The notes: generated from the letters alone by a model not told the origin. Counted from the stretch's first letter, positions 27,196-64,000 are shown. The stretch is 64,000 nucleotides of DNA from Nemertoderma westbladi (GCA_032718475.1 JAUCBJ010000045.1:38527-102526), one strand, 5' to 3'. Made by a program: numbers and translations.

Positions 27196-27694
27196 GAGAG
27201 AGAGAGTGAGAGATAAAAGGGGTAAATAGGATATATATATTAGTTAGCAGTAAGTAGAGTTAGTAGCGAGAGGGGGGCATATGAGTACAGCTGGATAAAT
27301 CGTGTGGCCACACGACGCATACTGCTGTACTGCATGGGCCCACAGAGTAGGCCAGAATATGGATCAGAGAATAGAATAAATCCATAGGCAGTAGTAGGTA
27401 GTAGGACAGTAGGATCAAAGCAAACAAACAAATAAATACAATAGGGCTAAAATCGTAAAATAGTGGCAACACAAGGAAAGTCGTTCTAGAACATAATAAA
27501 AGTAACGGACGGAAATTGTAAATTAGGCTGATTTACTAGCTCCGAAATTAATTAGGTTAAATTTAGCTTGAAAGGCGCAATTAAGTAGAAAGTAGGCCAT
27601 TATCGAACTGTACGAAACATCTTAAATACTTCACTCATCTGTATTGCGCCTTGGTAAGGCACCACCCTGCAGGTGAGCGAGTGTAGTGTTCGGA

Positions 27695-30229
27695 ATGGCG
27701 AGTAAGCTGATCAGGAAGAGAAAGGCGGAGTCAGGAGGAAAAGAAATATTGGTGGATTTCACTGAAAGACACCCAGAAGAGAAGACGAGAGGATACTACG
27801 AGAGGTTGGAAAGGGGTCACGCAGCACGAGCGCTGCAGGATCACTTCCGGGAGGCGCACGAACAGCGGTTGGTCGGGACCTACGGGACCCCGTCACTAGA
27901 CAACGCAATCTTCCAACACTTCCACTACGTGGTGAAAGGGGACGAGGCGAAGTTCGGGATTCCGAAGTATCCGAGGGAATCACCGAGGAAGGACTGGAAA
28001 AGATTCATAGAGTCCGTCAACAGAGGAGGATATATGATCCTAGATGACGAGGGAACCGTGGAAAACGAAGCGGGTTCGAGACGAGGAACGGCAGGATCGG
28101 CCAGGACCATACTCCTACATTTGGCCGCGCCAAATGGGGACATCTTCTTATTCGACCTAGGGACGTATGGGAAGAAGGACGGGCCGAAATTAGACCGATT
28201 ACCGAAAGCGGTACAAGTCTTAGTAAGGGAGAAGTCGACGACGAAAGTGGGATCGGCGATTCGCGAGGACGCGGAGAGGATCATCGGTCCGGACACCACC
28301 AACCTCCTGGATATGCAGAAAGTCTTTATGGCTATGACGGCACCGGATGGATTGGGGGTAGTCGAAAACACAGGCCAATGCGGGGCTGTGGCGATGGGCC
28401 AATTATTGGGGCTCGTATGCCACAAACCGATGGACTGGGGAAAGTTTAGGGAAGAATACGGAGCAGAACTAGCGAACTCGCTGAAGTGGGGAGCGAGACC
28501 GGGAAAGCAGGAGGTATATCAGTTTCGCAGAGGAGCGATAAAGGTATATCAGAAGCGATATATCCTGCAGGAGGACTGGATGATGATAAGTTTGCTTAAC
28601 TTATTCATGACCGTAGTTATCGAAAGGGAACCAGGGGCATTTCTGTTATCGGGATCACCCCTAAGCTACAGGAGAGCCTTTAAGACGGCCTTCGACGGTC
28701 TGGTAGACCACCCGGGGCTGAAGGGCGAGTCGGTGTACTACAACAGCCGACATCTGGTAGACGGGGAGACAGATACACCGTATCAGAGATGGGAGCAGCT
28801 AGAGGCGGACAGACGAGAAGCAAAGCGACTGGAAGAAGTCGCTAGACGGGAGAGGATAGAAGCAGAGGAGAGGGAAGAGGAGGCCAGGGCACAGAGTTAC
28901 GGCTTCGAGGAACAGGCGGGCCTAGACGAACTTCATTGGACTTCGTCAGGGAGTTCGGGGGAGTCTCTAGGGCGAGAATTGGGATGGACGGTGGGATCGC
29001 CGAAACAGTCGACGTCGGGGTTGCAAACGATGCCCATACCAGCGGGCGCCGAGGGCGACCAACCGCCAAGGAAGTTAAGGGAGCTAGAGGGATGGAGAGC
29101 TACGGGCGAGAGCCAAGGCGGGAAGGGACATAGTGGATCCATCGGGATACCGGGGTTGGAAACACTACCAGAAGAGGAAGACGACGGCGACGAGTTCGGA
29201 GAGATGCCGCCCATCGAAAGGATAGGCCACTCGGACACGGACTGGGTTGGCGGAAGGGTGGTGACGGCCAGTGGGGCGAGGGCCTTCTGGAACAGATCCG
29301 GCAAGCGGACCTGGGTGCACGAGGAGCCGGCGATGGATTTCGCGGGGAGCACCATCAGGTTGGGCGAGCAACCGGGAACAGCACCACGGATAGTATTCGG
29401 GGAGACGATGCCCGAGAGGGGCGGAGAGATCGACGTAAACAGGGAGAGCAACGTAGAGAAGTTCGCCTACCAGCGACTCCATAGACCGCGGAGATCGCTT
29501 GGGACGAAAGACGAGGTGGGACGGGAGACATTGGTACTCGGCTGCGACTACTGTGGGAGACAGACCCATCGGGAAAGCAGCTGCCTATACCGGTTCCAAA
29601 AGGGAACCTTTTGTCTGTACTGCAGAGAACCAAGCCACAGGATGGGGGCGTGTCCACGGTTGCATAACCGATGTCCAAAGTGCCACTTTCGGGGACACTA
29701 CGGGCGCGAGTGCGACTGGATGAGCGACGAGGAAAAGTTCACAAGATTCGAGGAGTGGGCCGACGTCGGGGCCATGACGCGCCAGCGCATGAAGGCCCAA
29801 GAGTTCAAGTGGGGTTTCTTCCTCATAAACCAGGAGACCCACATGGAAATCATAAAGCGAAGGTTACCGTTTACCTATCAAGAGGTAGCAACGGCGGCGT
29901 CGTTCGCCGGAGTTATGAACACGCAACGGTACCTGGACAGGTGGACACCAGAGAACCGGAGGGAGTTTAGGGATTTCTTGGCGGAACACGTACCAAAGGC
30001 AATGAAAATGATCCTATGGGACGCCACGCGAGGGAGACAACCAGGCCATTCTGAGGGGCCACCGGCGAAGCGGTATCGGGCATTAATAACACCAGCGCCC
30101 AAGGAACCAACGACCGGGATCAGCAAGGAAGTGGCGGCGAAGGTCCGAAAGCAGAAAGCGGATGATGCCAGAGGCACGGTGATAACCAAGAAACGGGCCA
30201 GGGAAGAGGACGTCAGGAGGAACAGATAG
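27695..30229 (+). CDS. DEDDy-type 3'-5' exonuclease (RNase D/WRN/Mut-7/EXD-like) with three C-terminal CCHC zinc knuckles; cargo ORF of element B
   Basis: ExoI YMILDDEG, LLHLA, IFLFDL, LPKAVQVLVREKSTTKVGSAIRED (ExoII), LLDMQ, QKRYILQED (ExoIII-like). Knuckles CDYCGRQTHRESSC, CLYCREPSHRMGAC, CPKCHFRGHYGREC (29543-29713). Basic NLS-like ends. Confidence 0.8.
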   Translation: MASKLIRKRKAESGGKEILVDFTERHPEEKTRGYYERLERGHAARALQDHFREAHEQRLVGTYGTPSLDNAIFQHFHYVVKGDEAKFGIPKYPRESPRKDWKRFIESVNRGGYMILDDEGTVENEAGSRRGTAGSARTILLHLAAPNGDIFLFDLGTYGKKDGPKLDRLPKAVQVLVREKSTTKVGSAIREDAERIIGPDTTNLLDMQKVFMAMTAPDGLGVVENTGQCGAVAMGQLLGLVCHKPMDWGKFREEYGAELANSLKWGARPGKQEVYQFRRGAIKVYQKRYILQEDWMMISLLNLFMTVVIEREPGAFLLSGSPLSYRRAFKTAFDGLVDHPGLKGESVYYNSRHLVDGETDTPYQRWEQLEADRREAKRLEEVARRERIEAEEREEEARAQSYGFEEQAGLDELHWTSSGSSGESLGRELGWTVGSPKQSTSGLQTMPIPAGAEGDQPPRKLRELEGWRATGESQGGKGHSGSIGIPGLETLPEEEDDGDEFGEMPPIERIGHSDTDWVGGRVVTASGARAFWNRSGKRTWVHEEPAMDFAGSTIRLGEQPGTAPRIVFGETMPERGGEIDVNRESNVEKFAYQRLHRPRRSLGTKDEVGRETLVLGCDYCGRQTHRESSCLYRFQKGTFCLYCREPSHRMGACPRLHNRCPKCHFRGHYGRECDWMSDEEKFTRFEEWADVGAMTRQRMKAQEFKWGFFLINQETHMEIIKRRLPFTYQEVATAASFAGVMNTQRYLDRWTPENRREFRDFLAEHVPKAMKMILWDATRGRQPGHSEGPPAKRYRALITPAPKEPTTGISKEVAAKVRKQKADDARGTVITKKRAREEDVRRNR

Positions 30230-36392: not shown

Positions 36393-38963
36393 TCAAGGGG
36401 GTGGAGGTGGTGGGGTAGGGGGAACCTCGTTACACCAGTTCACTGCGTGACAATCGCTCAACTCCATGCCACTAGTTGCATACCATCGTTCGATACATTC
36501 CCCATCACAGAAGTCTGCCACACAGGTTGGCCCTTCAGACATATGGTTAATACAATAGAAACAGGGGTCGCACAGTTCCATGCATTTCTCCGCCGCGGTC
36601 TCGAGATCGCATGGATCGCCTACACCATCGCCGTCGCAGTCAATTACATTGTTAAGACGGTCGTAGAATATAGCGTGACATCCGCCGCAATAATTGGGCT
36701 CGCAATGAGCCTCCAGGTGGGCCGGACACTCTGCGAATTCGCAGGGATTCACAAAACACAAAACTTCATGAACTCCGGGCGGACACGGACAATCATCGTC
36801 ATCACCACAATCAACAAGGTTGCTGTCCTCGTCGAAATAGTCAGCGAAACAACCGCCACAGTAGTTCGGTCTGCAGTGCGCGTAAGGATGATTGGGGCAC
36901 GAATGTGTGCGACAAGGATCTTCGTTACAACGCAGCACCGCCACACCGTTGGGACAAGGACCAACTTCCTCGCAATCTACCACTTGGTTATCACTGTTGT
37001 AGAAGACGGCATTGCAACCGCCGCAGTAGTTTGGTACGCAGGTGGCGTCGGGGTAGGAAGGACATGTCGCTCGGTCGCAAGGATTCCACATACACGTCGT
37101 GTCGTAGGGAACGCCGGGACTACAAGGGCCGCCGATCGGTTCGCAATCGACTACAGCGCCGTTCTCATCGACAAAATAGTAGCTGCAGCCGCCACAGTAA
37201 TCGCGGACACAGGTGGCCTCAGGGTTGGCCGTGCAGACCTTCCCTTGGCACGGATCCTCGTAACAGGTATGCAACTCCATACCGGAGGCACACCATGTTG
37301 TAGTGACGCCATCTAGAGGTTCCATACAGACACGCTGACAGCCGTCCTGACAACAACGTTGATCTTCTCGACACTCCCCATCGTGATCGCATTCGTCATG
37401 GGGAGCTACGCATTCTGTTCTGGAGAGCGCCGGTACGTGGGGACAAACACCCGGTTTAACTATCCACGAAGGCAAACATGTCCGTTTGCATCCGTTCCAA
37501 CAACATTTCTGCCATTTTCCTTCGCAATCGTTATCACAACAACAGTCATCCACCACACCAAACGGACAAAGAGTAAGTAAAGGAGATACTACAGGAGGAC
37601 AGGATCCTATTTTCACCTTTTTACAAGGCCAAACGCATGGCTGAACGCATTTATATTGGCATCCAACGCGGCAACATTTATACTCTTTAATAAAACACTC
37701 ATTATCACAATCACATTCGTGGATCACTGGTTTTGGAAACAACATGGGGAAGAAAGGTTGCTTTGGACATTTCCCAATTCGAAGAAATTGGCAAGGGAGA
37801 ACTGGTCTTTGACATATTTTCCTGCATCCGTCGAAGCAACATTTATTGGGAGATTTGCAATCCTCATCGCATTGACATAAATCGATGCTCGGATAAGGGC
37901 AAAACAAAGGATAGCAGAGCAGTTTCGGACAACTTCCGATTCTCTCAAATAAACAAGGACAATCAGGTGGCTTACATAACCTGGTACATCCATCGTGACA
38001 GCACTTCCAGTCACCTTTACAATCGTCATCGCATTTACACAAAGGTTCTATGAGATCTATAGGACAATATGGAGGTATCACAGGCTTTGGACATTTACAA
38101 GGCTTCTCGGTGTTACATGGAACATTTAGAGCTTCAACACAAACAAATTTGCAACCATCCGAACAACACTTGGAGTCTCCTTTGCAATGTTTATCGCACA
38201 TGCATTGATGGGGAGGAGGGTACAAGCATGGCGGCTTGATCCACGGATTGGGACAATGACCTGGTTTCGGAATGTCATCTAAACATGGAGCCAATGACAC
38301 AGGCGGGAGACAAACTTTCTTGCAACCCTGATAGCAGCATTTATAATTACCAAAACAATGTTCATCACATTCGCATTCATGGGGTTGGACAGGGGCGCAA
38401 TCGGAAAACAGAATGGAATTTACCAGTTGACAACTACCTGGTTTTTCTATGGCGCATGGCGGTAGTGGGGCTGGGACATGGCATGCACTTTTACAGCCAT
38501 CGTGACAACACTTTTGGTCACGGTCGCAATGACTGTCGTCTTGGCAACTAGACATATCGTCTATGAGACAAGCTTTGTTCATTCTCGATACAATGGGGCA
38601 ATTACCCGGTTTAGGAGGACTTTCAGGATCAACACAAGCATAGCCGCAACCAACACGGCAGCATTTGAGAAGACCATGACATTCATGATCGTAAGTGCAC
38701 TCGGTAGGGCATTCCGCCAGGGCGATGTAAGAGTCGCGATATTGGGGACAGACCCCTGGTTTGACAGACGGTCCGATCGGAATAGCCTCTTTCGCCTCCA
38801 ATTGAACGAATTCATCATGAAGACCAATGTATGGTAACTGTACCTCTTGTAACTCTACCTCTATCTCTGGCACTATGTGCAAAGTATCTCTCGGTACTTC
38901 AGCGCATTGCACCCCATGGTATACAGAGGTAATGGCAGACAGCACCACTAAAATCCACCACAT
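36393..38963 (-). CDS. Secreted multi-WAP (four-disulfide core) protein: signal peptide, 9 WAP domains, 4+1 'PC...C...P.A.C..nYCGGC' repeats, poly-Pro tail; single coding exon
   Basis: MWWILVVLSAITSVYHGVQC signal peptide; nine KPG.CP/RIG.CP...C..D..C....KCC..GC...C units; AATAAA on minus strand at 36278-36283. Confidence 0.9.
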   Translation of the reverse strand: MWWILVVLSAITSVYHGVQCAEVPRDTLHIVPEIEVELQEVQLPYIGLHDEFVQLEAKEAIPIGPSVKPGVCPQYRDSYIALAECPTECTYDHECHGLLKCCRVGCGYACVDPESPPKPGNCPIVSRMNKACLIDDMSSCQDDSHCDRDQKCCHDGCKSACHVPAPLPPCAIEKPGSCQLVNSILFSDCAPVQPHECECDEHCFGNYKCCYQGCKKVCLPPVSLAPCLDDIPKPGHCPNPWIKPPCLYPPPHQCMCDKHCKGDSKCCSDGCKFVCVEALNVPCNTEKPCKCPKPVIPPYCPIDLIEPLCKCDDDCKGDWKCCHDGCTRLCKPPDCPCLFERIGSCPKLLCYPLFCPYPSIDLCQCDEDCKSPNKCCFDGCRKICQRPVLPCQFLRIGKCPKQPFFPMLFPKPVIHECDCDNECFIKEYKCCRVGCQYKCVQPCVWPCKKVKIGSCPPVVSPLLTLCPFGVVDDCCCDNDCEGKWQKCCWNGCKRTCLPSWIVKPGVCPHVPALSRTECVAPHDECDHDGECREDQRCCQDGCQRVCMEPLDGVTTTWCASGMELHTCYEDPCQGKVCTANPEATCVRDYCGGCSYYFVDENGAVVDCEPIGGPCSPGVPYDTTCMWNPCDRATCPSYPDATCVPNYCGGCNAVFYNSDNQVVDCEEVGPCPNGVAVLRCNEDPCRTHSCPNHPYAHCRPNYCGGCFADYFDEDSNLVDCGDDDDCPCPPGVHEVLCFVNPCEFAECPAHLEAHCEPNYCGGCHAIFYDRLNNVIDCDGDGVGDPCDLETAAEKCMELCDPCFYCINHMSEGPTCVADFCDGECIERWYATSGMELSDCHAVNWCNEVPPTPPPPPP

Positions 38964-39479
38964 ATTTAGGGAATGTAGTAAGTATTTTAAATCGTTATCT
39001 CTATTTCCACGATGGGTCAGTTATGCGCCACGCGGAAACAAGTAACTATTTTTAAACATATTTAATGGATTAAATAGAAATAACGAATGAAACTGATGGG
39101 TCGGGATATAATAATAACACTATGAGAAAATTACTCGCGGTTCATTGAATCGCCACGTGTTGCACTGGATGGACAAAGAAACCATTCCAACTCACTCAAC
39201 CGTTTTTTTCTCAAACAATTTCATTTATTCCTAATTTATTAAAACGTAAGTATAAAAACCCTGGATAGAGCAATATAACAATAACACAAGTTTAATCTGT
39301 GAATAACCATTCCGGATTTGTTATTACTTGGTAATATTCGTGTGCTTAGGAACTACAACAGTGGTGCGTGGCTCGAGTTTTGGATCTCCAGTTTCAAAAA
39401 ATTGTTTCTCAAAGTTTCACAAATAAAACAAATTATATACTCCAAACAAGAATCGTAACCACAACTAAACTTAATCTAC

Positions 39480-43559: not shown

Positions 43560-44180
43560 AGTCTACATGGAAGAAATAATCCTGTCTGCGTATCGGGTTG
43601 TCCGTCGATGTCGAAGTCCGACATACTGACTATCATCTGTAAGGATAACGCCCCCAGCCATTCCTCTGGGAAGCCGCACTCATCGTCTCATAGGATCTTA
43701 GTTGCGATGTCTCCAATGAGCCCAAGTTTTATCACTCTATTATCGAATGCAATGAGCTACAACAATGTGATTCCCGCGCTCATTCCGGTATATGCGATAA
43801 GCCGTTGATATTTCTTCACCCATTCAGTATCTACCCACGTCCAAAAATAAACTGAGATGCGATGGAGGATGGATCATATTTTATAGTCGCATCGACAGTC
43901 GCGGTGACATTTGGGGTGGAAGTTATTACCGCAATGGACTCGGAGATCCCAAAGGAAGTTACTTTCTCGGATTTCATAATATCTATTTTCTGACACTCAA
44001 CAAGAATTGTTTCCTAAATATCGACTTGGGAGAATCGAGGATAATCTACAGCAACTTTACTTCGGTGTCTCCTTTTAAGTTAAACGTACTACTGTACGAC
44101 CGGTTGCTGATGGAGCTTACAATCTCACTGTCCTGAATAACATGGAGTTTCACCGAAGTTATGGATGGCGGATTAGGTAC
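43560..44180 (-). pseudogene. Possible decayed coding sequence, unidentified
   Basis: GC-richer island; minus strand reads WTWVDTEWVKKYQRLIAYTG...DDECGFPEEWLGALSL with in-frame stops. Confidence 0.25.
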
Positions 44181-46284: not shown

Positions 46285-46955
46285 TTAATCTGTTATATAT
46301 TGATCTTCTCTTCCTCGAGATGTTACTTCTGTGTAGATTTGATCCAGCTGTGTGGTCTCTAGGTAACTCTTGTAGTATCGAATGTGAGCCATCAATCCCA
46401 GAAAGTTCCTTTTTTGACCTATTAAACGTTTTCCAATGAGAAACTGATACGATTGGTCCGATCTTTCGGCCGCAGTTATATGTTTCTCTTTAATCTTGTG
46501 TTCTCCGCTATCTATGCTACGGATGTACAAATACATCTTGTTGGATGTGTTAGTTCCACTCACTGCCGCTACGGCCATGTACCACTTGTCGACTGTAATA
46601 CAATCAGGTAGTGTAATTTGGTTTGGTGACGATTCATAGGAAAGAGATGTTGAATTGGGATGTATCGCAACGTGCGATCCTTGACTTTGGTTGTTGCCAA
46701 ACCCCAGTAACGGAGTTCTGTCCGTTGCCGTTGTCTGCTTGATAAAGGCAATCACAGTGAACGTCTCTGTCTGGAGCCTGTCGTCATGGGGGATGGAAAC
46801 ATAGCCGCTACTAAAATCCGCTGATTGGCCCGCAAATCCTCGGGGTCCTTCTTTGTACTTCAGGTTGTCATGGACGACTCCATTGAGTCGCCCCAATTGG
46901 TCATTCCCTTTGTATTTTAAACCGAGTGGCCAATAAGCAACCAGTGTGGTGTCAG
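46285..46955 (-). CDS. Last exon (LamG/concanavalin A-like domain) of a secreted PAN-PAN-Cys-rich-LamG protein
   Basis: Acceptor tttttgattctgattcag|CT at 46955, phase 1; (A)DTTLVAYWPL...FTVIAFIK...KWYMAVA...FLIG...NFLGLMAHIRYYKSYLETTQLDQIY. Confidence 0.85.
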
Positions 46956-47109
46956 CTGAATCAGAATCAAAAAAATATATAAATGTATTGAAATGATTTA
47001 GTAATCTAATTTATACTGAGAGCGAGAGCATCCATGACCCATATACAAACTACAGTAGACTAGCTTATTAATACCTATATATATAATACCTAAACATTTT
47101 ATAAATAAT

Positions 47110-50100
47110 GCCTTTGGAAACACTTGACCCGTCTTCTGTGAGCCAATCTTACCTTCGCAAAGCGTTGACCCATCTTCTGTGAGCCAATATTACCTTCGCA
47201 AATCTGAGACTCGCCTTCTTTGAGCCAATATTACCTTCGCAAACCGTTGACCCTTCTTCTGTGAGCCAAAATTACCTTCACCAACCGTTGACCCATCTTC
47301 TGTGAGCTAATATTACCTTCGCAAATCTTTGACCCGTCTTCTGTGAGCCAATATTACCTTCGCAAATCTTTGACCCGTCTTCTGTGAGCCAATATTACCT
47401 TCGCAAATCTGAGACTCGCCTTCCTTGAGCCAATATTACCTTCGCAAACCGTTGACCCTTCTTCTGTGAGCCAAAATTACCTTCGCAAAGCGTTGACCCG
47501 TCTTCTGTGAGCCAATATTACCTTCGCAAACCTTTGACCCGTCTTCTGTGAGCCAATATTACCTTCGCAAACCGTTGACCCGTCTTCTGTGAGCCAATAT
47601 TACCTTCGCAAACCTTTGACCCGTCTTCTGTGAGCCAATATTACCTTCGCAAACCGTTGACCCTTCTTATGTGAGCAATATTACCTTCGCAAACCTTTGA
47701 CCCGTCTTCTGTGAGCCAATATTACCTTCGCAAAGCGTTGACCCGTCTTCTGTGAGCCAATATTACCTTCGCAAACCGTTGACCCGTCTTCTGTGAGCCA
47801 ATATTACCTTCGCAAAGCGTTGACCCGTCTTCTGTGAGCCAATATTACCTTCGCAAACCGTTGACCCTTCTTCTGTGAGCCAACATTACCTTCGCAAAGC
47901 GTTGACCCGTCTTCTGTGAGCCAATATTACCTTCGCAAACCATTGACCCGTCTTCTGTGAGCCAATATTACCTTCGCAAACCGTTGACCCATCTTCTGTG
48001 AGCCAATATTACCTTCGGAAACCGTTGACCCATCTTCTGTGAGCTAATATTACCTTCGCAAATCTTAGACCCGTCTTCTGTGAGCCAATATTACCTTCGC
48101 AAATCTTAGACTCGCCTTCTGTGAGCCAATCTTACCTTCGGAAATCGTTGACCCATCTTCTGTGATCCAATATTACCTTCGCAAATCTTAGACTCGCCTT
48201 CTGTGAGCCAATCTTACCTTCGGAAATCGGTGACCCATTGTCTGTGAGCTAATATTACCTTCGCAAATCTTAGACCCATCTTCTGTGAGCCAATATTACC
48301 TTCGCAAATCTTAGACTCACCTTCTGTGAGCCAATCTTTCCTTCGGAAACCGTTGACCCTTCTTCTGTGAGCCAATATTACCTTCGCAAACCGTTGACCC
48401 GTCTTCTGTGAGCTAATATTACCTTCGCAAATCTTAGACCCGTCTTCTGTGAGCCAATATTACCTTCGCAAATCTTACACTCGCCTTCTTTGAGCCAATA
48501 TTACCTTCACAAACCGTTGACCCTTCTTCTGTGAGCCAATATTACCTTCGAAAAGCGTTGACCCGTCTTCTGTGAGCCAATATTACCTTCGCAAATCTTA
48601 CACTCGCCTTCTTTGAGCCAATATTACCTTCGCAAACCGTTGACCCATCTTCTGTGAGCCAATATTACTTTCGCAAACCTTTGACCCTTCTTCTGTGAGC
48701 CAATATTACCTTCGCAAAGCGTTGACCCGCCTTCTGTGAGCCAATATTACCTTCGCAAATCTTACACTCGCCTTCTTTGAGCCAATATTACCTTCGCAAA
48801 CCGTTGACCCATCTTCTGTGAGCCAATATTACTTTCGCAAACCTTTGACCCGTCTTCTGTGAGCCAATATTACCTTCACCAACCGTTGACCCATCTTCTG
48901 TGAGCCAATATTACCTTCGCAAACCTTTGATCCGTCTTCTGTGAGCCAATATTACCTTCGCAAAGCGTTGACCCGTCTTCTGTGAGCCAATATTACCTTC
49001 GCAAACCGTTGACCCATCTTCTGTGAGCCAATATTACCTTCGCAAACCGTTGACCCGTCTTCTGTGAGCCAATATTACCTTCGCAAACCGTTGACCCGTC
49101 TTCTGTGAGCCAATATTACCTTCGCAAATCTTACACTCGCCTTCTTTGAGCCAATATTACCTTCGCAAACCGTTGACCCTTCTTCTGTGAGCCAATATTA
49201 CCTTCGCAAACCGTTGACCCATCTTCTGTGAGTTAATATTACCTTCGCAAATCTTAGACCCGTCTTCTGTGAGCCAATATTACCTTCGCAAATCTTACAC
49301 TCGCCTTCTTTGAGCCAATATTACCTTCACAAACCGTTGACCCTTCTTCTGTGAGCCAATATTACCTTCGAAAAGCGTTGACCCGTCTTTTGTGAGCCAA
49401 TATTACCTTCGCAAATCTTACACTCGCCTTCTTTGAGCCAATATTACCTTCGCAAACCGTTGACCCATCTTCTGTGAGCCAATATTACTTTCGCAAACCT
49501 TTGACCCTTCTTCTGTGAGCCAATATTACCTTCGCAAAGCGTTGACCCGCCTTCTGTGAGCCAATATTACCTTCGCAAATCTTACACTCGCCTTCTTTGA
49601 GCCAATATTACCTTCGCAAACCGTTGACCCATCTTCTGTGAGCCAATATTACTTTCGCAAACCTTTGACCCGTCTTCTGTGAGCCAATATTACCTTCACC
49701 AACCGTTGACCCATCTTCTGCGAGCCAATATTACCTTCGCAAACCTTTGATCCGTCTTCTGTGAGCCAATATTACCTTCGCAAAGCGTTGACCCGTCTTC
49801 TGTGAGCCAATATTACCTTCGCAAACCGTTGACCCATCTTCTGTGAGCCAATATTACCTTCGCAAACCGTTGACCCGTCTTCTGTGAGCCAATATTACCT
49901 TCGCAAACCTTTGACCCGTCTTCTGTGAGCCAATATTACCTTCGCAAACCGTTAACCCTTCTTCTGTGAGCCAATATTACCTTCACAAACCTTTGACCCG
50001 TCTTCTGTGAGCCAACATTACCTTCGCAAAGCGTTGACCCGTCTTCTGTGAGCCAATATTACCTTCGGAAATCTTAGACTCGCCTTCTGTGAGCCAATCT

Positions 50101-53100
50101 TACCTTCGGAAATCGTTGACCCGTCTTCTGTGAGCCAATATTACCTTCACAAATCTTAGACCCGTCTTCTGTGAGCCAATATTACCTTCGCAAATCGTAG
50201 ACTCGCCTTCTGTGAGCCAATATTACCTTCGCAAACCGTTGACCCATTTTCTGTGAGCCAATATTACCTTCGCAAATCTGAGACTCGCCTTCTTTGAGCC
50301 AATATTACCTTCGCAAACCTTTGACCCGTCTTCTGTGAGCCAATATTACCTTCGCAAACCTTTGACCCCGTCTTCTGTGAGCCAATATTACCTTCGCAAA
50401 CCTTTGACCCGTCTTCTGTGAGCCAATATTACCTTCGCAAACCTTTGACCCGTCTTCTGTGAGCCAATATTACCTTCGCAAACCTTTGACCCGTCTTCTG
50501 TGAGCCAATCTTACCTTCGTAAACCTTTGACCCGTCTTCTATGAGCCAATATTACCTTCGCAAACCTTTGACCCGTCTTCTGTGAGCCAATATTACCTTC
50601 GCAAACCTTTGACCCGTCTTCTGTGAGCCAATATTACCTTCGCAAACCTTTGACCCGTCTTCTGTGAGCCAATCTTACCTTCGCAAACCTTTGACCCGTC
50701 TTCTGTGAGTCAATATTACATTAGCAAACCTTTGATCCGTCTTCTGTGAGCCAATATTACCTTCGAAAACCTTTGACCCGTCTTCTGTGAGCCAATCTTA
50801 CCTTCGCAAACCTTTGACCCGTCTTCTGTGAGCCAATATTACATTCGCAAACCTTTGACCCGTCTTCTGTGAGCCAATCTTACCTTCGCAAACCTTTGAC
50901 CCGTCTTCTGTGAGCCAATATTACATTCGCAAACCTTTGACCCGTCTTCTGTGAGCCAATATTACCTTCACAAATCTTAGACTCGCCTTCTGTGAGCCAA
51001 TCTTACCTTCGGAAACCGTTGACCTATCTTCTGTGAGCTAATATTACCTTCGCAAATCTTAGACTCGCCTTCTGTGAGCCAATCTGAATTTCGGAAATCG
51101 GTGACCCATCTTCTGTGAGCTAATATTACCTTCGCAAATCTTAGACCCGTCTTCTGTGAGCCAATATTACCTTCGCAAATCTTAGACTCGCCTTCTGTGA
51201 GCCAATCTTACCTTCGGAAATCGTTGACCCATCTTCTGTGAGCCAATATTACCTTCGCAAATCTTAGACTCGCATCCTGTGAGCCAATCTTACCTTCGGA
51301 AATCGTTGACCCATCTTCTGTGAGCCAATATTACCTTCGCAAATCTTAGACTCGCCTCCTGTGAGCAAATCTTACCTTCGGAAATCGTTGACCCATCTTC
51401 TGTGAGCTAATATTACCTTCGCAAATCTTAGACCCGTCTTGTGTGAGCCAATCTTATCTTCGGAAATCGTTGACCCATCTTTTGTGAGCTAATATTACCT
51501 TCGTAAATCTTAGACCCGGCTTCTGTGAGCCAATATTACCTTCGCAAATCTTAGACTCGCCTTCTGTGAGCCAATCTGACCTTCGCAAATCTTAGACTCG
51601 CCTCCTGTGAGCCAATCTTACCTTCGGAAATCGTTGACCCATCTTCTGTGAGCCAATATTACCTTCGCAAATCTTAGACTCGCCTCCTGTGAGCCAATCT
51701 TATATTCGGAAATCGTTGACCCATCTTTTGTGAGCTAATATTACCTTCGTAAATCTTAGACCCGGCTTCTGTGAGCCAATATTACCTTCGCAAATCTTAG
51801 ACTCGCCTTCTGTGAGCCAATCTGACCTTCGCAAATCTTAGACTCGCCTCCTGTGAGCCAATCTTACCTTTGGAAATCGTTGACCCATCTTCTGTGAGCC
51901 AATATTACCTTCGCAAATCTTAGACTCGCCTCCTGTGAGCCAATCTTATATTCGGAAATCGTTGACCCATCTTTTGTGACCTAATATTACCTTCGTAAAT
52001 CTTAGACCCGTCTTCTGTGAGCCAATATTACCTTCGCAAATCTTACACCAGTCTTCTGTGAGCCAATATTACCTTCGCAAATCTTAGACTCGCCTTCTGT
52101 GAGCCAATCTGACCTTCGCAAATCTTAGACTCGCCTTCTGTGAGCCAATAGTACCTTCGGAAATCTTTGACTCGCCATCAGTGAGCCAATCTTACCTTCG
52201 GAAATCGTTGACCCATCTTCTGTGAGCTAATATTACCTTCGCAAATCTTAGACCCGTCTTCTGTGAGCCAATATTACCTTCGCAAATCTTAGACCCGTCT
52301 TCTATGAGCCAATATTACCTTCGCAAATCTTAGACTCGCCTTCTGTGAGCCAATATTACCTTCGCAAATCTTAGACTCACTTTCTGTGAGCCAATATTAG
52401 CTTCGCAAAAAATCTTAGAATCGCATTCTGTGAGCCAATCTTACTTTTGCAAATCTTAGACTCGCCTTCTGTGAGCCAATCTGACCTTCGCAAATTTTAG
52501 ACTCGCCTTCTGTGAGCCAATAGTACCTTCGGAAATCTTTGACTCGCCATCTGTGAGCCAATCTTACCTTCGGAAATCGTTGACCCATCTTCTCTGAGCC
52601 AATATTACCTTCGCAAATCTTAGACCCGTCTTCTGTAAGCCAATATTACCTTCGGAAATCTTAGACCCGTCTTCTGTGAGCCAATATTACCTTCGCAAAT
52701 CGTAGGCTCGTCTTCTGTGAGCCAATATTACCTTTGCAAATCTTAGACCCGTCTTCTGTGAGCCAATACTACCTTCGCAAACCTTTGACCCATCTTCTGT
52801 GAGCTAATATTACCTTCGCAAATCTTAGACTCTCCTTCTGTGAGCCAATCTTACCTTCGGAAATCGTTGACCCATCTTCTCTGAGCCAATATTACCTTCG
52901 CAAACCGTTGACCCATTTTCTGTGAGCCAATATTACCTTCGCAAATATGAGACTCGCCTTCTTTGAGCCAATATTACCTTCGCAAACCTTTGACCCGTCT
53001 TCTGTGAGCCAATATTACCTTCGCAAACCTTTGACCAGTCTTCTGTGAGCCAATATTACCTTCGCAAACCTTTGACCCGTCTTCTGTGAGCCAATATTAC

Positions 53101-56100
53101 CTTCGCAAACCTTTGACACGTCTTCTGTGAGCCAATATAACCTTCGAAAACCTTTGACCCGTCTTCTGTGAGCCAATCTTACCTTCGTAAACCTTTTACC
53201 CGTCTTCTGTGAGCCAATATTACCTTCGCAAACCTTTGACCCGGCTTCTGTGAGCCAATATTACCTTCGCAAACCTTTGACCCGTCTTCTGTGAGCCAAT
53301 ATTACCTTCGCAAACCTTTGACCCGTCTTCTGTGAGCCAATATTACCTTCGAAAACCTTTGACCCGTCTTCTGTGAACCAATCTTACCTTCACAAACCTT
53401 TGACCCGTCTTCTGTGAGCCAATATTACATTCGCAAACCTTTGACCCGTCTTCTGTGAGCCAATATTACCTTCGCAAATCTTTGGCTCGCCTTCTGTGAG
53501 CCAATCTACCTTCGGAAACCGTTGACCCATCTTCTGTGAGCTAATATTACCTTCGCAAATCTTAGACTCGCCTTCTGTGAGTCAATCTGAATTTCGGAAA
53601 TCGGTGACCCATCTTCTGTGAGCTAATATTACCTTCGCAAATCTTAGACCCATCTTCTGTGAGCCAATATTACCTTCGCAAATCTTAGACTCGCCTTCTG
53701 TGAGCCAATCTTACCTTCGGAAATCGTTGACCCATCTTCTGTGAGCCAATATTACCTTCGCAAATCTTAGACTCGCCTCCTGTGAGCCAATCTTAACTTC
53801 GGAAATCATTGACCCATCTTCTGTGAGCCAATATTACCTTCGCAAATCTTAGACTCGCCTCATGTGAGCCAATCTTACCTTCGGAAATCGTTGACCCATC
53901 TTCTGTGAGCTAATATTACCTTCGCAAATCTTAGACCCGTCTTCTGTGAGCCAATCTTACCTTCGGAAATCGTTGACCCATCTTCTGTGAGCCAATATTA
54001 CCTTCGCAAATCTTAGACTCGCCTCCTGTGAGCCAATCTTAACTTCGGAAATCATTGACCCATCTTCTGTGAGCCAATATTACCTTCGCAAATCTTAGAC
54101 TCGCCTCATGTGAGCCAATCTTACCTTCGGAAATCGTTGACCCATCTTCTGTGAGCTAATATTACCTTCGCAAATCTTAGACCCGTCTTCTGTGAGCCAA
54201 TCTTACCTTCGGAAATCGTTGACCCATCTTCTGTGAGCCAATATTACCTTCGCAAATCTTAGACTCGCCTCCTGTGAGCCAATCTTAACTTCGGAAATCA
54301 TTGACCCATCTTCTGTGAGCCAATATTACCTTCACAAATCTTAGACTCGCCTTCTGTGAGCCAATCTTACCTTCGGAAATCGTTGACCCATCTTCTGTGA
54401 GCTAATATTACCTTCGAAAATATTAGACCCATCTTCTGTGAGCCAATATTACCTTCGCAAATCTTAGACTCGCCTTCTGTGAGCCAATCTTACCTTCGGA
54501 AATCGTTGACCCATCTTCTGTGAGCCAATATTACCTTCGCAAATCTTAGACTCGCCTCCTGTCAGCCAATCTTAACTTCGGAAATCATTGACCCATCTTC
54601 TGTGAGCCAATATTACCTTCGCAAATCTTAGACTCGCCTTCTGTGAGCCAATCTTACCTTCGGAAATCGTTGACCCATCTTCTGTGAGCTAATATTACCT
54701 TCGCAAATCTTAGACCCGTCTTCTGTGAGCCAATCTTACCTTCGGAAATTGTTGACCCATCTTTTGTGAGCTAATATTACCTTCGTAAATCTTAGACCCG
54801 GCTTCTGTGAGCCAATATTACCTTCGCAAATCTTAGACTCGCCTTCTGTGAGCCAATCTGACCTTCGCAAATCTTAGACTCGCCTCCTGTGCGCCAATCT
54901 TACCTTCGGAAATCGTTGACCCATCTTCTGTGAGCCAATATTACCTTCGCAAATCTTAGACTCGCCTCCTGTGAGCCAATCTTACCTTCGGAAATCGTTG
55001 ACCCATCTTCTGTGAGCTAATATTACCTTCGCAAATCTTAGACACGCCTTCTGTGAGCCAATCTTACCTTCAAAAATCGTTGAACCATCTTCTGTGAGCC
55101 AATATTACCTTCGTAAATCTTAGACCCGGCTTCTGTGAGCCAATATTACCTTCGCAAATCTTACACCCGTCTTCTGTGAGCCAATATTACCTTCGCAAAT
55201 CTTAGACTCGCCTTCTGTGAGCCAATCTTACCTTCGCATATCTTAGACTCACCTTCTGTGAGCCAATATTACCTTCGTATATCTTAGACTCGCCTTCTGT
55301 GAGCTAATATTACCTTCGCAAATCTTAGACCTGCCTTCTGTGAACCAATCTTCCCTTCGCATATCTTAGACTCACCTTCTGTGAGCCAATATTACCTTCG
55401 GAAATCTTAGACTCGCCTTCTGTGAGCTAATATTACCTTCGCAAATCTTAGACTCACCTTCTGTGAACCAATATTATCTTCGCAAATCTTAGACTCGCCT
55501 TCTGTGAGCCAATCTTACCTTCGAAAAACGTTGACCTGCCTTCTGTGAGCCAATCTTACATTCGCAAACCGTTGACCCGCCTTCTGTGAGCCAATCTTAC
55601 CTTCACAAACCGTTGACCCGCCTTCTGTGAGTCAATCTTACCTTCGCAAACCGTTGACCCGTCTTCTGTGAGCCAATATTACCTTCGCAAACCGTTGACC
55701 CGCCTTCTGTACGCCAATCTTACCTTCGCAAACCGTTGACCCATCTTCTGTGAGCCAATATTACCTTCGCAAACCGTTAACCCGTCTTCTTTGAGCCAAT
55801 CTTTCCTTCGCAAACCGTTGACCCGCCTTCTGTGAGCCAATCTTACCTTCGCAAACCGTTAACCCTCTTCAGTGAGCTAATATTACCTTCGCAAACCGTT
55901 GACCCGCCTCCTGTGAGCCAATCTGACCTTCGCAAACAGTTGAACCATCTTATGTGAGCCAATATTACCTTCGCAAACCGTTGACCCACTTCAGTGAGCT
56001 AATATTACCTTCACAAACCTTTGACCCATCTTCTGTGAGCCAATCTTGCCTTTGCAAACCTTTGACCCAACTTCTGTGAGCCAATATTACCCTCGCAAAC

Positions 56101-57290
56101 CTTTGAACCATCTTCTACGAGCCAATCTTACCTTCGCAAACCTTTGACTCTTCTTCTGTGAGCCAATCTTACCTTCGCAAACCTTTGACCCATCTTCTGT
56201 GAGCCAATATTACCTTCGCAAACCGTTGACCATCTTCTGTGAGCCAATCTTACCTTCGCAAACCTTTGACCCATCTTCTGTGAGCCAATCTTACCTTCGT
56301 AAACCTTTGACCCATCTTCTGTGAGCCAATATTACCTTCGCAAACCTTTGACCCTTCTTCTGTGAGCCAATCTTACCTTCGTAAATCTTAGACTCGCCTT
56401 CTGTGAGCCAATCTTACCTTCGCAAACCGTTTACCCATCTTCTGTGAGCCAATATTTCCTTCGCAAACCGTTGATCCGCCTTCTGTGAGCCAATCTTATC
56501 TTCGCAAACCGTTGACCAGCCTTCTGTGAGCCAATATTACCTTCGCAAACCGTTGACCCGCCTTCAGTGAGCCAATATTACCTTCGCAAACCGTTGACCC
56601 TCCTTCTGTGAGCCAATATTACTTTCGCAAATCTTAGACTCACCTTCTTTGAGCCAATATTACCTTCGCAAACCGTTGACCCGTCTTCTTTGAGCCAATC
56701 TTTCCTTCGCAAACCGTTGACCCTTCTTCTGTGAGCCAATCTTACCTAAGCAAACCGTTGACCCGCCTCCTGTGAGCCAATGTTACCTTCGCAAACCGTT
56801 GAACCACCTTCTGTGAGCCAATCCTACCTTCGCAAACCGTTGACCCGCCTTCTGTGAGCCAATCTTACCTTCGCAAACCGTTGACCCGCCTTCTGTGAGC
56901 CAATATTACCTTTGCAAACCGTTGACCCACCTTCTGTGAGCCAATCTTACCTTCGCAAACCGTTGACCCGTCTTCTGTGAGCCAATATTACCTTCGCAAA
57001 CCGTTGACCCGCCTTCTGTAAGCCAATCTTACCTTCGCAAACCGTTGACCCGCCTTCTGTGAGCAAATCTTACCTTCGTAAACCGTTGACCCTCCTTCTG
57101 TGAGCCAATAATACCTTCGCAAAACGTTGACCCGCCTTCTGTGAGCCAATATTACCTTCGCAAACCGTTGACCCGCCTTCTGTGAGCCAATATTACCTTC
57201 GGAAATCTTAGACTCACCTTCTAGCTTTGCAAATCTAAGACTCTCCTTCTATGAGCCAATCTTACCTTCGCAAACCTTTGACCCGTCTTC
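47110..57290 (-). repeat. 41-bp satellite, roughly 250 copies, derived from the exon 3/intron 3 boundary
   Basis: Minus-strand unit AAGACGGGTCAACGGTTTGCGAAG-gtaatattggctcacag; the first unit is the end of the coding exon at 57266-57290. Confidence 0.95.
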
Positions 57291-57397
57291 TTTGTGCGAA
57301 ATATATGATATCGCACACGAGTTGCAGTCCGGTTCTTGTCTGTGTTTTATTACACATTTATATTCTAAGCCACAAACTTCGCACGGGTTGTCAACAC
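57266..57397 (-). CDS. Exon 3 (132 nt, phase 1-1), Cys-rich/EGF-like module
   Basis: ctatttcag|GTGTTGAC ... TGCGAAG|gtaaga; (C)VDNPCEVCGLEYKCVIKHRQEPDCNSCAISYISHKEDGSKVCE. Joins in frame to both neighbours; not in the ORF track. Confidence 0.8.
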
Positions 57398-57637: not shown

Positions 57638-58479
57638 AGTCCACTGTTAAAGTCCACAGTTAAAGTCCACTGTTAAAGACCACTGTTAAAGTCCACTGTT
57701 AAAGTCCACTGTTAAAGTCCACTGTTAAAGTCCACTGTTAAAGTCCACTGTTAAAGTCCACTGTTAAAGTCCACTGTTAAAGTCCACTGTTAAAGTCCAC
57801 TGTTAAAGTCCACTGTTAAAGTCCACTGTTAAAGTCCACTGTTAATGTCCACTGTTAAAGTCCACTGTTAAAGTCCACTGTTAAAGTCCACTGTTAAAGT
57901 CCACTGTTAAAGTCCACTGTTAAAGTCCACTGTTAAAGTCCACTGTTAAAGTCCACTGTTAGAGTCCACTGTTAAAGTCCACTGTTAAGGTCCACTGTTA
58001 AAGTCCACTGTTAAAGTCCACTGTTAAAGTCCACTGTTAAAGTCCACTGTTAAAGTCCACTGTTAAAGTCCACTGCTAAAGTCCACTGTTAAAGTCCTCT
58101 GTTAAAGTCCACTGTTAAAGTCCACTGTTAAAGTCCACTGTTAAAGTCCACTGTTAAAGTCCACTGTTAAAGTCCACTGTTAAGGTCCACTGTTAAGGTC
58201 CACTGTTAAAGTCCACTGTTAAAGTCCACTGTTAAAGTCCACTGTTAAAGTCCACTGTTAAAGTCCACTGTTAAAGTCCACTGTTAAAGTCCACTGTTAA
58301 AGTCCACTGTTAAAGTCCACTGTTAAAGTCCACTGTTAAAGTCCACTGTTAAAGTCCACTGTTAAAGTCCACTGTTAAAGTCCACTGTTAAAGTCCACTG
58401 TTAAAGTCCACTGTTAAAGTCCACTGTTAAAGTCCACTGTTAAAGTCCACTGTTAAAGTCCACTGTTAAAGTCCACTGT
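57638..58479. repeat. 13-bp minisatellite (GTCCACTGTTAAA)n, ~65 copies, intronic
   Basis: Direct inspection. Confidence 0.95.
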
Positions 58480-58634: not shown

Positions 58635-58907
58635 ATAGGAAAGGAATTTTATCGACTTTATCGAAGAAGGCGACATTTTCACCAAACGTAGCGACAACTG
58701 TACTGAGTTTGGTGTCGGTTTCATAGTCAGTTTCGTATCCACAGAATCTCGTGATATTCCAAGCCCACACAGCCGCCTTACATTCGGTATCGCCGCCACA
58801 TCTCCTCATGCATTCCTTGTAAGAGTCGATGTCTGTCTGGCTCTTTAGACCCACAGCTCCAAGGTTACGGGCTCTACATGGGGACGCGAACTTTCCAACC
58901 CAACCAG
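58635..58907 (-). CDS. Exon 2 (273 nt, phase 1-1), PAN/apple-like domain
   Basis: ttattcag|CTGG ... CTAT|gtaagt; SYKECMRRCGGDTECKAAVW...C pattern. Confidence 0.8.
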
Positions 58908-59395: not shown

Positions 59396-60575
59396 ATAAT
59401 TGAATGTACCGACATACTGACTAACAGGGGGTTGTGATGTATATATATTTTTGACTTATATATTTGATTTTTAAAAACACTTTTGTTTGTGTTTTTTGTT
59501 TGTTTTGTTTTGTGTTCCTTGATGGCCTTAGGGTCTGGAAGGTATTTTGGGCTTAATGTCCTGATTCTATATTTTTTTGTAGTTAAAGGGTGTAAGACTC
59601 TAGTGTTTACCTTAAAGTTAATATATACATCACAACCCCCTGTTAGTCAGTATGTCGGTTACATTCAATTATCACATATGAATATCCCGAATTTTTACTG
59701 GGATAGAGCAGAACTCCGGCATCACTGCATGTTGTTAAATCTTATATAATTTTTGTGCTGTGTGTTTGCTCTAGCAAACTACCAGTTTTCCATTGGTAAC
59801 ATGTTTACTTACCGTAGGCCTATAGGGTTCCAATGTTCTGAGGTCTGAAGTCTGTTTGGGCTGAGTGGTAACTGAGTTGATGGTGCGATTAATTTAGGTC
59901 AATGGTGCAATATAGTTAGGCTTGGCTAATTCCCTGTCCAGCTGATGAGGTGTCGAGGATTAGCGCGTACTGGCCCTAGACGCCGAAACGCAACCATATT
60001 TTTAACAAATTAATTATTTTTGTCTTAGTCCTACCTCTTTTACGGCGACAAAAATGTCATATATTTTCTTATAGAATATAGGCTTAGCTTTTGTGCAGTT
60101 TAATACCGGTATCATTTAGTGTATGGCGGTTAGGTTTTAGGGTTAGGGTTGCGATACATACTTGTATGTGGAGCATGGTATAATATATTTTGTTTATGTT
60201 TTTTGTTTGTTTTGTTTTGTGTTCCTTTATGGCCTTAGGGTCTGGAAGGTATTTTGGGCTTAATGTCCTGATACTATACTTTTGTTTGTTTTGTTTTGTG
60301 TTCCTTTATGGCCTTAGGGTCTGGAAGGTATTTTGGGCTTAATGTCCTGATACTATACTTTTGTTTGTTTTGTTTTGTGTTCCTTGATGGCCTTAGGGTC
60401 TGGAAGGTATTTTGGGCTTAATGTCCTGATACTATACTTTTGTTTGTGTTTTTTGTTTGTTTTGTTTTGTGTTCCTTGATGGCCTTAGGGTCTGGAAGGT
60501 ATTTTGGGCTTAATGTCCTGATTCTATATTTTTTTGTAGTTAAAGGGTGTAAGACTCTAGTGTTTACCTTAAAAT
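59396..60575 (+). mobile_element. Rearranged intronic repeat with inverted and direct duplications; possible Penelope-like remnant
   Basis: 59396-59448 inverted at 59621-59672; 59480-59615 repeated at 60440-60575; 79-bp unit x4 at 60200-60520; hammerhead-like core inside. Confidence 0.45.
59935..59996 (+). ncRNA. Hammerhead-ribozyme-like motif (incomplete)
   Basis: CTGATGA (59942-59948), stem II GGTGTC/GACGCC extended by AGG/CCT and TTAG/CTGG, then GAAAC (59985). No clean stem I or NUH site found. Confidence 0.45.
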
Positions 60576-60592
60576 TATTATAAATAACTAAC

Positions 60593-60884
60593 CTGTTCTC
60601 ATACTTGTCCATCTACTTTTTAGCTCATTCTCAACAACTTCCCAGGTGTCCATTACTTCTACACAATTCTCTTTGTAGATCTCGCAGACACCATCCCGGT
60701 AACTGAACCCCAGACACCCACCCCCGAGACCTTCGCACGCGATGTTACAGAGGAGCGAAGATGATTTCTTTGTGGTGAAACCATTGGCGGTCGGGTTTGT
60801 GCAGAAGTTGTATCTGTAGATGTTGCAAAAGGAGTTGGTTACCAGAGTTAATACAACAACAACGATTAGTGCGTCAGTAAACAT
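60593..60884 (-). CDS. Probable first coding exon: signal peptide + PAN/apple-like domain
   Basis: MFTDALIVVVVLTLVTNSFC; LCNIACEGLGGGCLGFSYRDGVCEIY; donor ACAG|gttagt, phase 1. The four exons sum to 1368 nt (455 aa + stop). Could instead be a separate small gene ending at 60588. Confidence 0.7.
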
Positions 60885-62343: not shown

Positions 62344-63331
62344 CTAATCACATTTCGTACTTTCACGACTCCATAAACTTAAAACACGACTAATTGGAGC
62401 TCCTCTCCTAACAGTTAACAAGAATTGGCCTGAATCATCAACAACAGTTGATAAATGATGAATGAGTTCCGAAACTGATAAAAAAGTTGTTGGCAAAGGA
62501 ACGAGATATTCAAGACAAGAAAATTGATCCTGAAAGTCATCGGAAACGGAAATGAAGGGTGGCTCGCACGAAGTTCCCACACTTTCATCATTAATTACTA
62601 TTTCTGGAATTTCTTCACTATTTCGATCAATCTTGACTCGTTTCCTTCTTGGTCGAGAAACCTCGCGCTCGCAGCTACTGGCATTTGCTGTAGGGCCATC
62701 AAGAGTTGAGAGTAAATACAGTGTGATTCTCTTATATTGTTTCCCTGTTCCTGTACCATCTTTATAACCCTTGAGAGTGAATTCCGTTTGCGTCCCAGGC
62801 AAATATTCAGCTACCCGTCCCCTATCATAAGATAGTTGGTACTCCTCGTCAATCTCATAGTCATCAGGGTAGTATGCTTTCCATGTATCTAAAGCGAGTG
62901 GAAGTATATCGGTATATTTAGCTGCTTCGCTTACTCTCACATTAACTACTTTTTCCCCAAATAGGTTTATATTTGGCATCACCATTGTTCCAGCGAAGCA
63001 TACCTATATTCATATCAACAACGGCCTCTGGTTTAGACACTGATTTGGGAGTTGACACCTTTGTCTTCCATTCTTTCCCCTTACTGACTCGGTATTCTTT
63101 GAATGATAAAACTCTAGATTTACTTGGATTCTCAACACTTCCACTATTACTACTGGTAGACAGTTCTGTTTCTCTAAGCTTGGTTGCTGGTGCTGCTGGT
63201 GTGGATATCGACGACCCAATTACTGACACATCAGAAATTACAGAGTAGGATGTGATTACGTTTCCACACTTGAAGCAGTAATTGTCGCCTTCCGCAGGCT
63301 GAAATCCACATGTCCGGCAAAACATTGTCAT
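62344..63331 (-). pseudogene. Frameshifted, truncated zinc-ribbon protein resembling the N-terminus of invertebrate G2E3-like HECT proteins
   Basis: MFCRTCG...NYCFKCG; KPIWGK/VVNVRV frameshift in an A run at ~62950; LPGTQTEFTLKGYK...GKQYKRITLYL; ends at LTVRRG...LSLW next to a 17-bp repeat (62300-62345). Family call from memory. Confidence 0.5.
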
Positions 63332-63495
63332 TGGTACACTACTACTGTAAGATAATGCAATAGATAACTGTAGACCTGCTGCTTTATTATGACTGAGTTT
63401 AGTAGGCCTACCTCCTTCAGGGACTGTTCACAGATTACGTAAAGCCATTTTTGAAACAAATTACCAAATGTAAAAGATTTTACAAATAATATTTT

Positions 63496-63496
<1 letters not shown>

Positions 63497-63530
<34 letters not shown>

Positions 63531-64000
63531 GGTGATTAAATCCACTAGCATATATGGTCCGGAGGGGGGGGGGGGGGGTTGGTGATTAAATCCACTAGCA
63601 TATATGGTCCGGAGGGGGGGGGGGGGTTGGTGATTAAATCCACTAGCATATATGGTCCGGAGGGGGGGGGGGGTTGGTGATTAAATCCACTAGCATATAT
63701 GGTCCCGAAGGGGGGGGGGGTTGGTGATTAAATCCACTAGCATATATGGTCCGGAGGGGGGGGGGGGGGTTGGTGATTAAATCCACTAGCATATATGGTC
63801 CGGAGGGGGGGGGGGGGGGGTTGGTGATTAAATCCACTAGCATATGTGGTCCGGAGGGGGGGGGGAGGGTTGGTGATTAAATCCACTAGCATATATGGTC
63901 CGGAGGGGGGGGGGGGGGGGTTGGTGATTAAATCCACTAGCATATGTGGTCCGGAGGGGGGGGGGAGGGTTGGTGATTAAATCCACTAGCATATATGGTC
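63497..64000. repeat. G-rich minisatellite (~46-52 bp; variable poly-G + TTGGTGATTAAATCCACTAGCATATATGGTCCGGA), runs off the edge
   Basis: About 10 units visible. Confidence 0.95.

Follow-up and report, generated by a model that had tools for sequence, protein, structure and literature searches.

A 41-bp minisatellite of about 247 head-to-tail units fills almost the whole of predicted intron 3 of a gene in Nemertoderma westbladi, taking up 10.15 kb of the 10.31-kb intron on the minus strand (positions 57289 to 47104 of the 64,000-nucleotide stretch analysed, here called the window). In all probability the array is an exon-intron-boundary minisatellite, likely derived from tandem duplication and ordinary repeat turnover and likely removed in one piece by splicing at the first donor. 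It belongs to a known kind of repeat, found in the human F7, CBS and IFI6 genes and in the amphioxus "mirage" repeats, in which splicing mostly goes through the first donor, and is unusual only in its size. A first-pass annotation of this DNA had proposed either a satellite born at a splice junction, loading the intron with decoy donors, or an array of micro-exon cassettes, and the former proposal is supported.

The predicted gene and its third intron

The gene model, including its donor choice, is a prediction made from sequence. Its four exons join into 1368 nt encoding 455 aa with no internal stop, giving the gene an intact appearance, and all exon junctions are phase 1-1. The earlier statement that the 24-nt segment of each repeat unit (the 24-mer) shares this phase with the exons was borne out. 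The predicted architecture is PAN / EGF-like / LamG, and all features described here lie on the minus strand. Predicted exon 1 (60593-60884) contains the ATG, a putative signal peptide (a hydrophobic N-terminus judged by eye), a Cys-rich segment and the donor CAG/GTTAGT; no Pfam match at E<=0.1 was found for it. Predicted exon 2 (58635-58907), with a TTCAG acceptor and a GTAAGT donor, encodes a PAN domain (Pfam PAN_1, E 5.7e-5, 23.3 bits vs. a cutoff of 21.4). Predicted exon 3 (57266-57397) ends in the authentic donor AAG/GTAAGA and encodes a six-Cys module, which is called EGF-like from its Cys spacing only, as judged by eye; no EGF match was found in Pfam, and all matches in an Atlas search of this exon were under 0.9. 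The sixth Cys of the module sits in the last 24 nt of the exon. Predicted exon 4 (46285-46955) encodes a LamG/concanavalin-A-like domain (Pfam Laminin_G_3, E 3.3e-10) and the terminal stop codon.

Orthologue searches, which covered longer proteins only, retained none of 781 candidates for exon 4 and none of 162 for exon 2. A homologue search found 42 distant LamG-type representatives with 22-37% identity (four inspected), and a metagenome search found three loci with 36-39% identity across a short stretch. A close homologue or orthologue that could show selection on the gene was not found in these searches.

The estimate of about 250 copies of a 41-bp unit held up under two procedures. TRF reported a repeat at 47124-57213 with period 41, 246.1 copies, 86% matches and a score of 13662, and parsing of the minus strand, begun at 57289, divided the array into 248 segments, comprising 240 of 41 nt, five of 40 nt and one each of 42, 44 and 69 nt. 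The substitution statistics were computed on 238 of the 248 units, leaving out units 0, 1 and 247 and seven units with indels. Among these 238 internal 41-nt units, an AG precedes the 24-mer in 225 and a GT follows it in 221, a stop codon interrupts the 24-mer in three, and 208 combine AG, GT and a stop-free 24-mer, in agreement with the AG/24-mer/GT layout described earlier. The 24-mer of unit 0 was likewise confirmed as the last 24 nt of predicted exon 3, followed by GTAAGA. The internal units include 138 distinct sequences and 63 distinct 24-mer peptides, with a mean pairwise difference between units of 13.4%. This difference grows with distance, being 0.105 for units at lag 2 and reaching 0.148 at lag 100, and an 18-unit block is duplicated at an offset of 20; tandem-repeat turnover, by block duplication and local homogenisation, is thus present in the array. 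Elsewhere in the window the unit gives only 10-nt chance matches. A coding repeat was considered and rejected, the longest stop-free run in the six frames being 86 codons.

Without the array, intron 3 would measure 156 nt. Most of this is the unique remainder at 46956-47103, with a T-rich tract and a TTCAG acceptor. At the other end, the first spacer (57249-57265) contains an in-frame TAG five codons past the end of exon 3, and the first downstream copy (57221-57248) is a 28-nt remnant without a GT donor. The first-pass annotation had described the unit correctly and had overlooked these two features, together with the exon-derived 3' part of the spacer.

Origin of the repeat unit

The likely source of the spacer's 3' part, its AG included, is the exon sequence at 57290-57300, where the duplication probably has its left edge. 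Over the final 11 nt of the spacer, 8 of 11 positions agree with the exon bases that immediately precede unit 0, a level reached by only 106 of 107158 non-array 11-mers (0.001), and one period further upstream the match drops to 5/24. At the right edge, the last unit matches the start of the spacer at 6 of 8 positions (null 0.009) and then at 2 of 9. From these two edges it follows that the unit joins the last 35 nt or so of the exon to roughly 6-8 nt from the start of the intron, the first monomer spanning the authentic exon-intron boundary as predicted from sequence. Because the duplication spans exon sequence, the "acceptor" AG of the unit and its 1-1 phase are inherited, and the AG is not an evolved acceptor. 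A foreign satellite that was inserted and then exonised is unlikely, since the 24-mer supplies the sixth Cys and the left edge lies within the exon.

A tandem duplication across the exon 3-intron boundary is the likely founding event of the 41-bp unit, and it may have begun by slippage at a short AT-rich microhomology. Slippage or unequal exchange would then have amplified the unit by ordinary repeat turnover, of which the block duplications are traces.

Donor choice and known boundary repeats

Through this origin the donor is reiterated head to tail along the intron, with 226 GT donors downstream of the authentic one. The copied donors are of good quality; among 241 scored, 46 are identical to the authentic 9-mer AAG/GTAAGA and 147 fall short of it only by the G at +5; +5G donors are denser near the exon, with 16 in the first 30 units vs. 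three in the last 28. Taken as alternative ends of exon 3, all 226 downstream donors lead to the same premature stop. Use of any one of them would run into the in-frame TAG of the first spacer and yield a 237-aa product without LamG, and such transcripts would presumably be substrates for decay. Inclusion of separate 24-mers as cassettes would escape this TAG but would require the poor acceptors of the units.

The closest precedent is the 37-bp VNTR in intron 7 of human F7, where the first monomer also spans the exon-intron boundary, the donor is also reiterated down the intron and the downstream donors, though identical, remain silent (Borensztajn et al. 2006, PMC1557585). In that account the F7 repeat has 5-9 copies, each with 4 nt of exon, vs. 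about 247 copies and about 35 nt here, and first-donor use, which has been shown for F7, is predicted for the present array. The same source lists further minisatellites of this architecture with 10-26 copies: intron 2 of IFI6 (6-16) has 25 pseudo-sites, one or two of which are used besides the authentic donor, intron 13 of CBS has 15-20 repeats with one or two downstream donors used, and the LMNB2 and PDGF intron 4 minisatellites use the authentic donor only (PMC1557585). Invertebrate tandem duplications of exon-intron boundaries comparable to the present one are the amphioxus mirages of Adh3, the globins BflGb6 and BflGb9, troponin C and PGBD5. These reports describe boundary duplications under concerted evolution, with splicing apparently undisturbed, and propose them as a possible source of new exons and introns (PMC3087553, PMC3902484); BflGb6 has 3-6 units there, vs. 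about 247 here.

By analogy with the F7 and amphioxus reports, exon definition from the strong acceptor of exon 3 would select the most upstream donor, and the spliceosome would then remove 10.3 kb as one piece. With about 250 donors spread across 10 kb, the array takes the class of boundary minisatellites to some ten times the copy numbers given in the literature compared; a literature search with aims other than size records found no array of this copy number. It offers an extreme natural test of the rule that the most upstream donor wins, and likewise of the proposal that boundary repeats seed new exons or introns. The importance of the array is modest, and the sequence analysis shows no function for it.

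Selection, splice signals and alternative readings

Substitutions and indels build up in the copies regardless of the GT and AG positions, the frame or the Cys. When the distinct units were placed on a spanning tree, 6, 5, 5 and 4 changes fell at the GT and AG positions vs. a mean of 5.0. Private changes at GT/AG numbered 16 of 160 vs. 15.6 expected (p=0.89), and a halved mutation rate at these positions was rejected (p=0.008). Such a per-position comparison had been suggested in the first-pass annotation as a check on its cassette proposal, and at the sequence level AG, GT and frame proved to mutate at the background rate. Raw counts show a synonymous excess, which speaks against the neutral reading: 39 of 122 events on the spanning tree are synonymous, compared with about 21% of all possible changes, and among private changes the figure is 28 of 93. 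Two third-codon positions are CpG sites, and with CpG transitions excluded, a step applied to the private-change count alone, synonymous changes make up 16 of 74 vs. 18.9% expected (p=0.55). The raw excess vanishes only after this exclusion, and once it is made the frame shows no protection. A distinct-allele test gave p=0.76, four of six single-base indels fall inside the 24-mer, and the Cys is retained in 177 of 238 units. No sign of purifying selection on the splice dinucleotides and frame was thus detected among the units. Strong array-wide constraint is excluded, and occasional use of a few copies is compatible with neutrality over 238 redundant copies.

Long AG-free zones mark acceptors. 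Each of the three real acceptors of the gene reads TTCAG and has 9-10 pyrimidines within 14 nt, and their AG-free zones measure 37, 46 and 48 nt. The unit "acceptors" are mostly CACAG (202/238), with a mean of 6.75 pyrimidines vs. 9-10 at the real ones, an AG-free zone of <=25 nt in 231/231 and 1-6, mostly 2-4, competing AGs within 40 nt upstream vs. none at the real ones; judged against the set of three, they are unlike the acceptors of the gene. This context speaks against the cassette proposal, by which non-adjacent 24-mers would be spliced in through introns of 58, 99, 140 nt and so on, so that the EGF-like and LamG domains would be joined by variable linkers containing Cys. The proposal could draw on the 1-1 phase of the 24-mer, on the many units that combine AG, GT and no stop, on the variety of peptides and on the raw synonymous excess. 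It is nevertheless highly improbable and was not upheld, given that GT/AG, frame and Cys are without constraint, that phase symmetry and AG are accounted for by inheritance from the exon, that neighbouring units are just 17 nt apart, and that exon 3 already has the 24-mer, so that each extra unit would give the six-Cys module a surplus Cys. Schistosome micro-exon genes, as presented in PMC4350168, resemble the array in their small symmetrical segments and probably secreted product, but their coding region consists mostly of small exons and they are documented to undergo alternative splicing, whereas the segments of the array are intronic repeat copies without sign of splice-site or frame constraint. 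The units do have the small, symmetrical, frame-preserving form (24 nt, phase 1-1), which is explained by copying of the exon end, and they lack acceptors like the three real ones. The SRRM3/4-type UGC motif, as described in 10.1101/2024.09.17.613571, occurs in just three of 246 spacers.

The least probable reading is recursive (zero-length) splicing, in which the AG/GT at the ends of the 24-mers would remove the 10-kb intron stepwise. Recursive splice sites have a conserved AG/GT preceded by a strong pyrimidine tract. In most units AG does stand directly ahead of GT, but the upstream pyrimidines average 7.0/14 vs. 9-10 at real acceptors, the AG/GT positions are conserved no more than background and the AG/GT is merely the copied exon end; neither the strong tract nor the conservation is seen in the units. 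If nearby downstream donors were used in a leaky or regulated manner, in the style of IFI6 and CBS, output would fall or a secreted 237-aa form without LamG would be made, with array length tuning expression. The exact 9-mer copies, the gradient of +5G donors toward the exon and the IFI6/CBS precedent in PMC1557585 speak for this reading, but the first downstream copy has no donor, donor conservation is no higher than background, and in F7 identical or stronger downstream donors failed to compete (same source), which leaves it quite unlikely. It is also unlikely that the gene is silent or dispensable, the array being tolerated for lack of selection, or that assembly error accounts for part of the copy number. 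The failure to find a close homologue and the presence of some near-identical blocks fit this idea; on the other side, the four exons join stop-free with canonical sites, and the 138 distinct units and 13% divergence are unlike a collapsed or stuttered assembly.

A further reading is considered very unlikely. The array might serve as a DNA-level cassette reservoir, in which unequal exchange or conversion with unit 0 would rewrite the last eight EGF-like codons from the 63 peptide variants, with a few copies occasionally spliced as nascent micro-exons. Four units lying 6.4-6.7 kb from unit 0 differ from it by a single base, whereas the 12 nearest 41-nt units do so by 2-6 bases, and 3 of the 11 exon bases just ahead of unit 0 disagree with the spacer. 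The likeness of unit 0 to distant units may hint at such a reservoir, and a founder effect explains it equally well.

Tandem repeats in the window

Tandem arrays make up 14,952 of the 64,000 bases of the window, as 18 arrays obtained by merging the 44 rows that Tandem Repeats Finder (TRF) returned for the whole stretch, and 10 kb of this total belongs to the main array, the 41-bp minisatellite of predicted intron 3 of the host PAN/EGF-like/LamG gene (47104-57289, minus strand). In this gene, predicted intron 2 is largely taken up by a 13-bp repeat (57638-58479; 64.8 copies with 98% matches by TRF), which does not reach the exon boundaries. Since TRF also placed a 79-92-bp repeat in predicted intron 1 (60201-60537), all three predicted introns of the host gene carry tandem repeats. 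A 49-bp repeat identified by TRF at 63500-64000 continues past the window end and shows long G runs of variable length.

Splice donors along the main array

The donors of the main array have G at the +5 position in 16 of the first 30 units, numbered from exon 3, and in 1 of 30 and 3 of 28 units in the final two bins, a decrease that may reflect drift of local blocks.

Other open reading frames and domains

Upstream of the host gene, two overlapping ORFs of 161 and 219 codons lie in different frames on the minus strand (62344-63427) and are perhaps a single frameshifted gene; a Pfam search with the 219-codon ORF gave no match. The GC-rich, purine-skewed block at about 20-31 kb contains an 850-codon ORF (27677-30229, plus strand), possibly a mobile element, for which no Pfam match was obtained at E<=0.1. 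Cys/His knuckle-like motifs were noted by eye in this ORF. A fragment of a Fibrinogen C-terminal domain was detected by Pfam at 43801-44136 on the plus strand (E 6.1e-6). The minus strand also harbors an uninterrupted, Cys-rich ORF of 875 codons (36393-39020), in which Pfam WAP (E 5.6e-46) matched over nine stretches, corresponding to WAP four-disulfide-core repeats. Other, unnamed Cys repeats are present in the same ORF.
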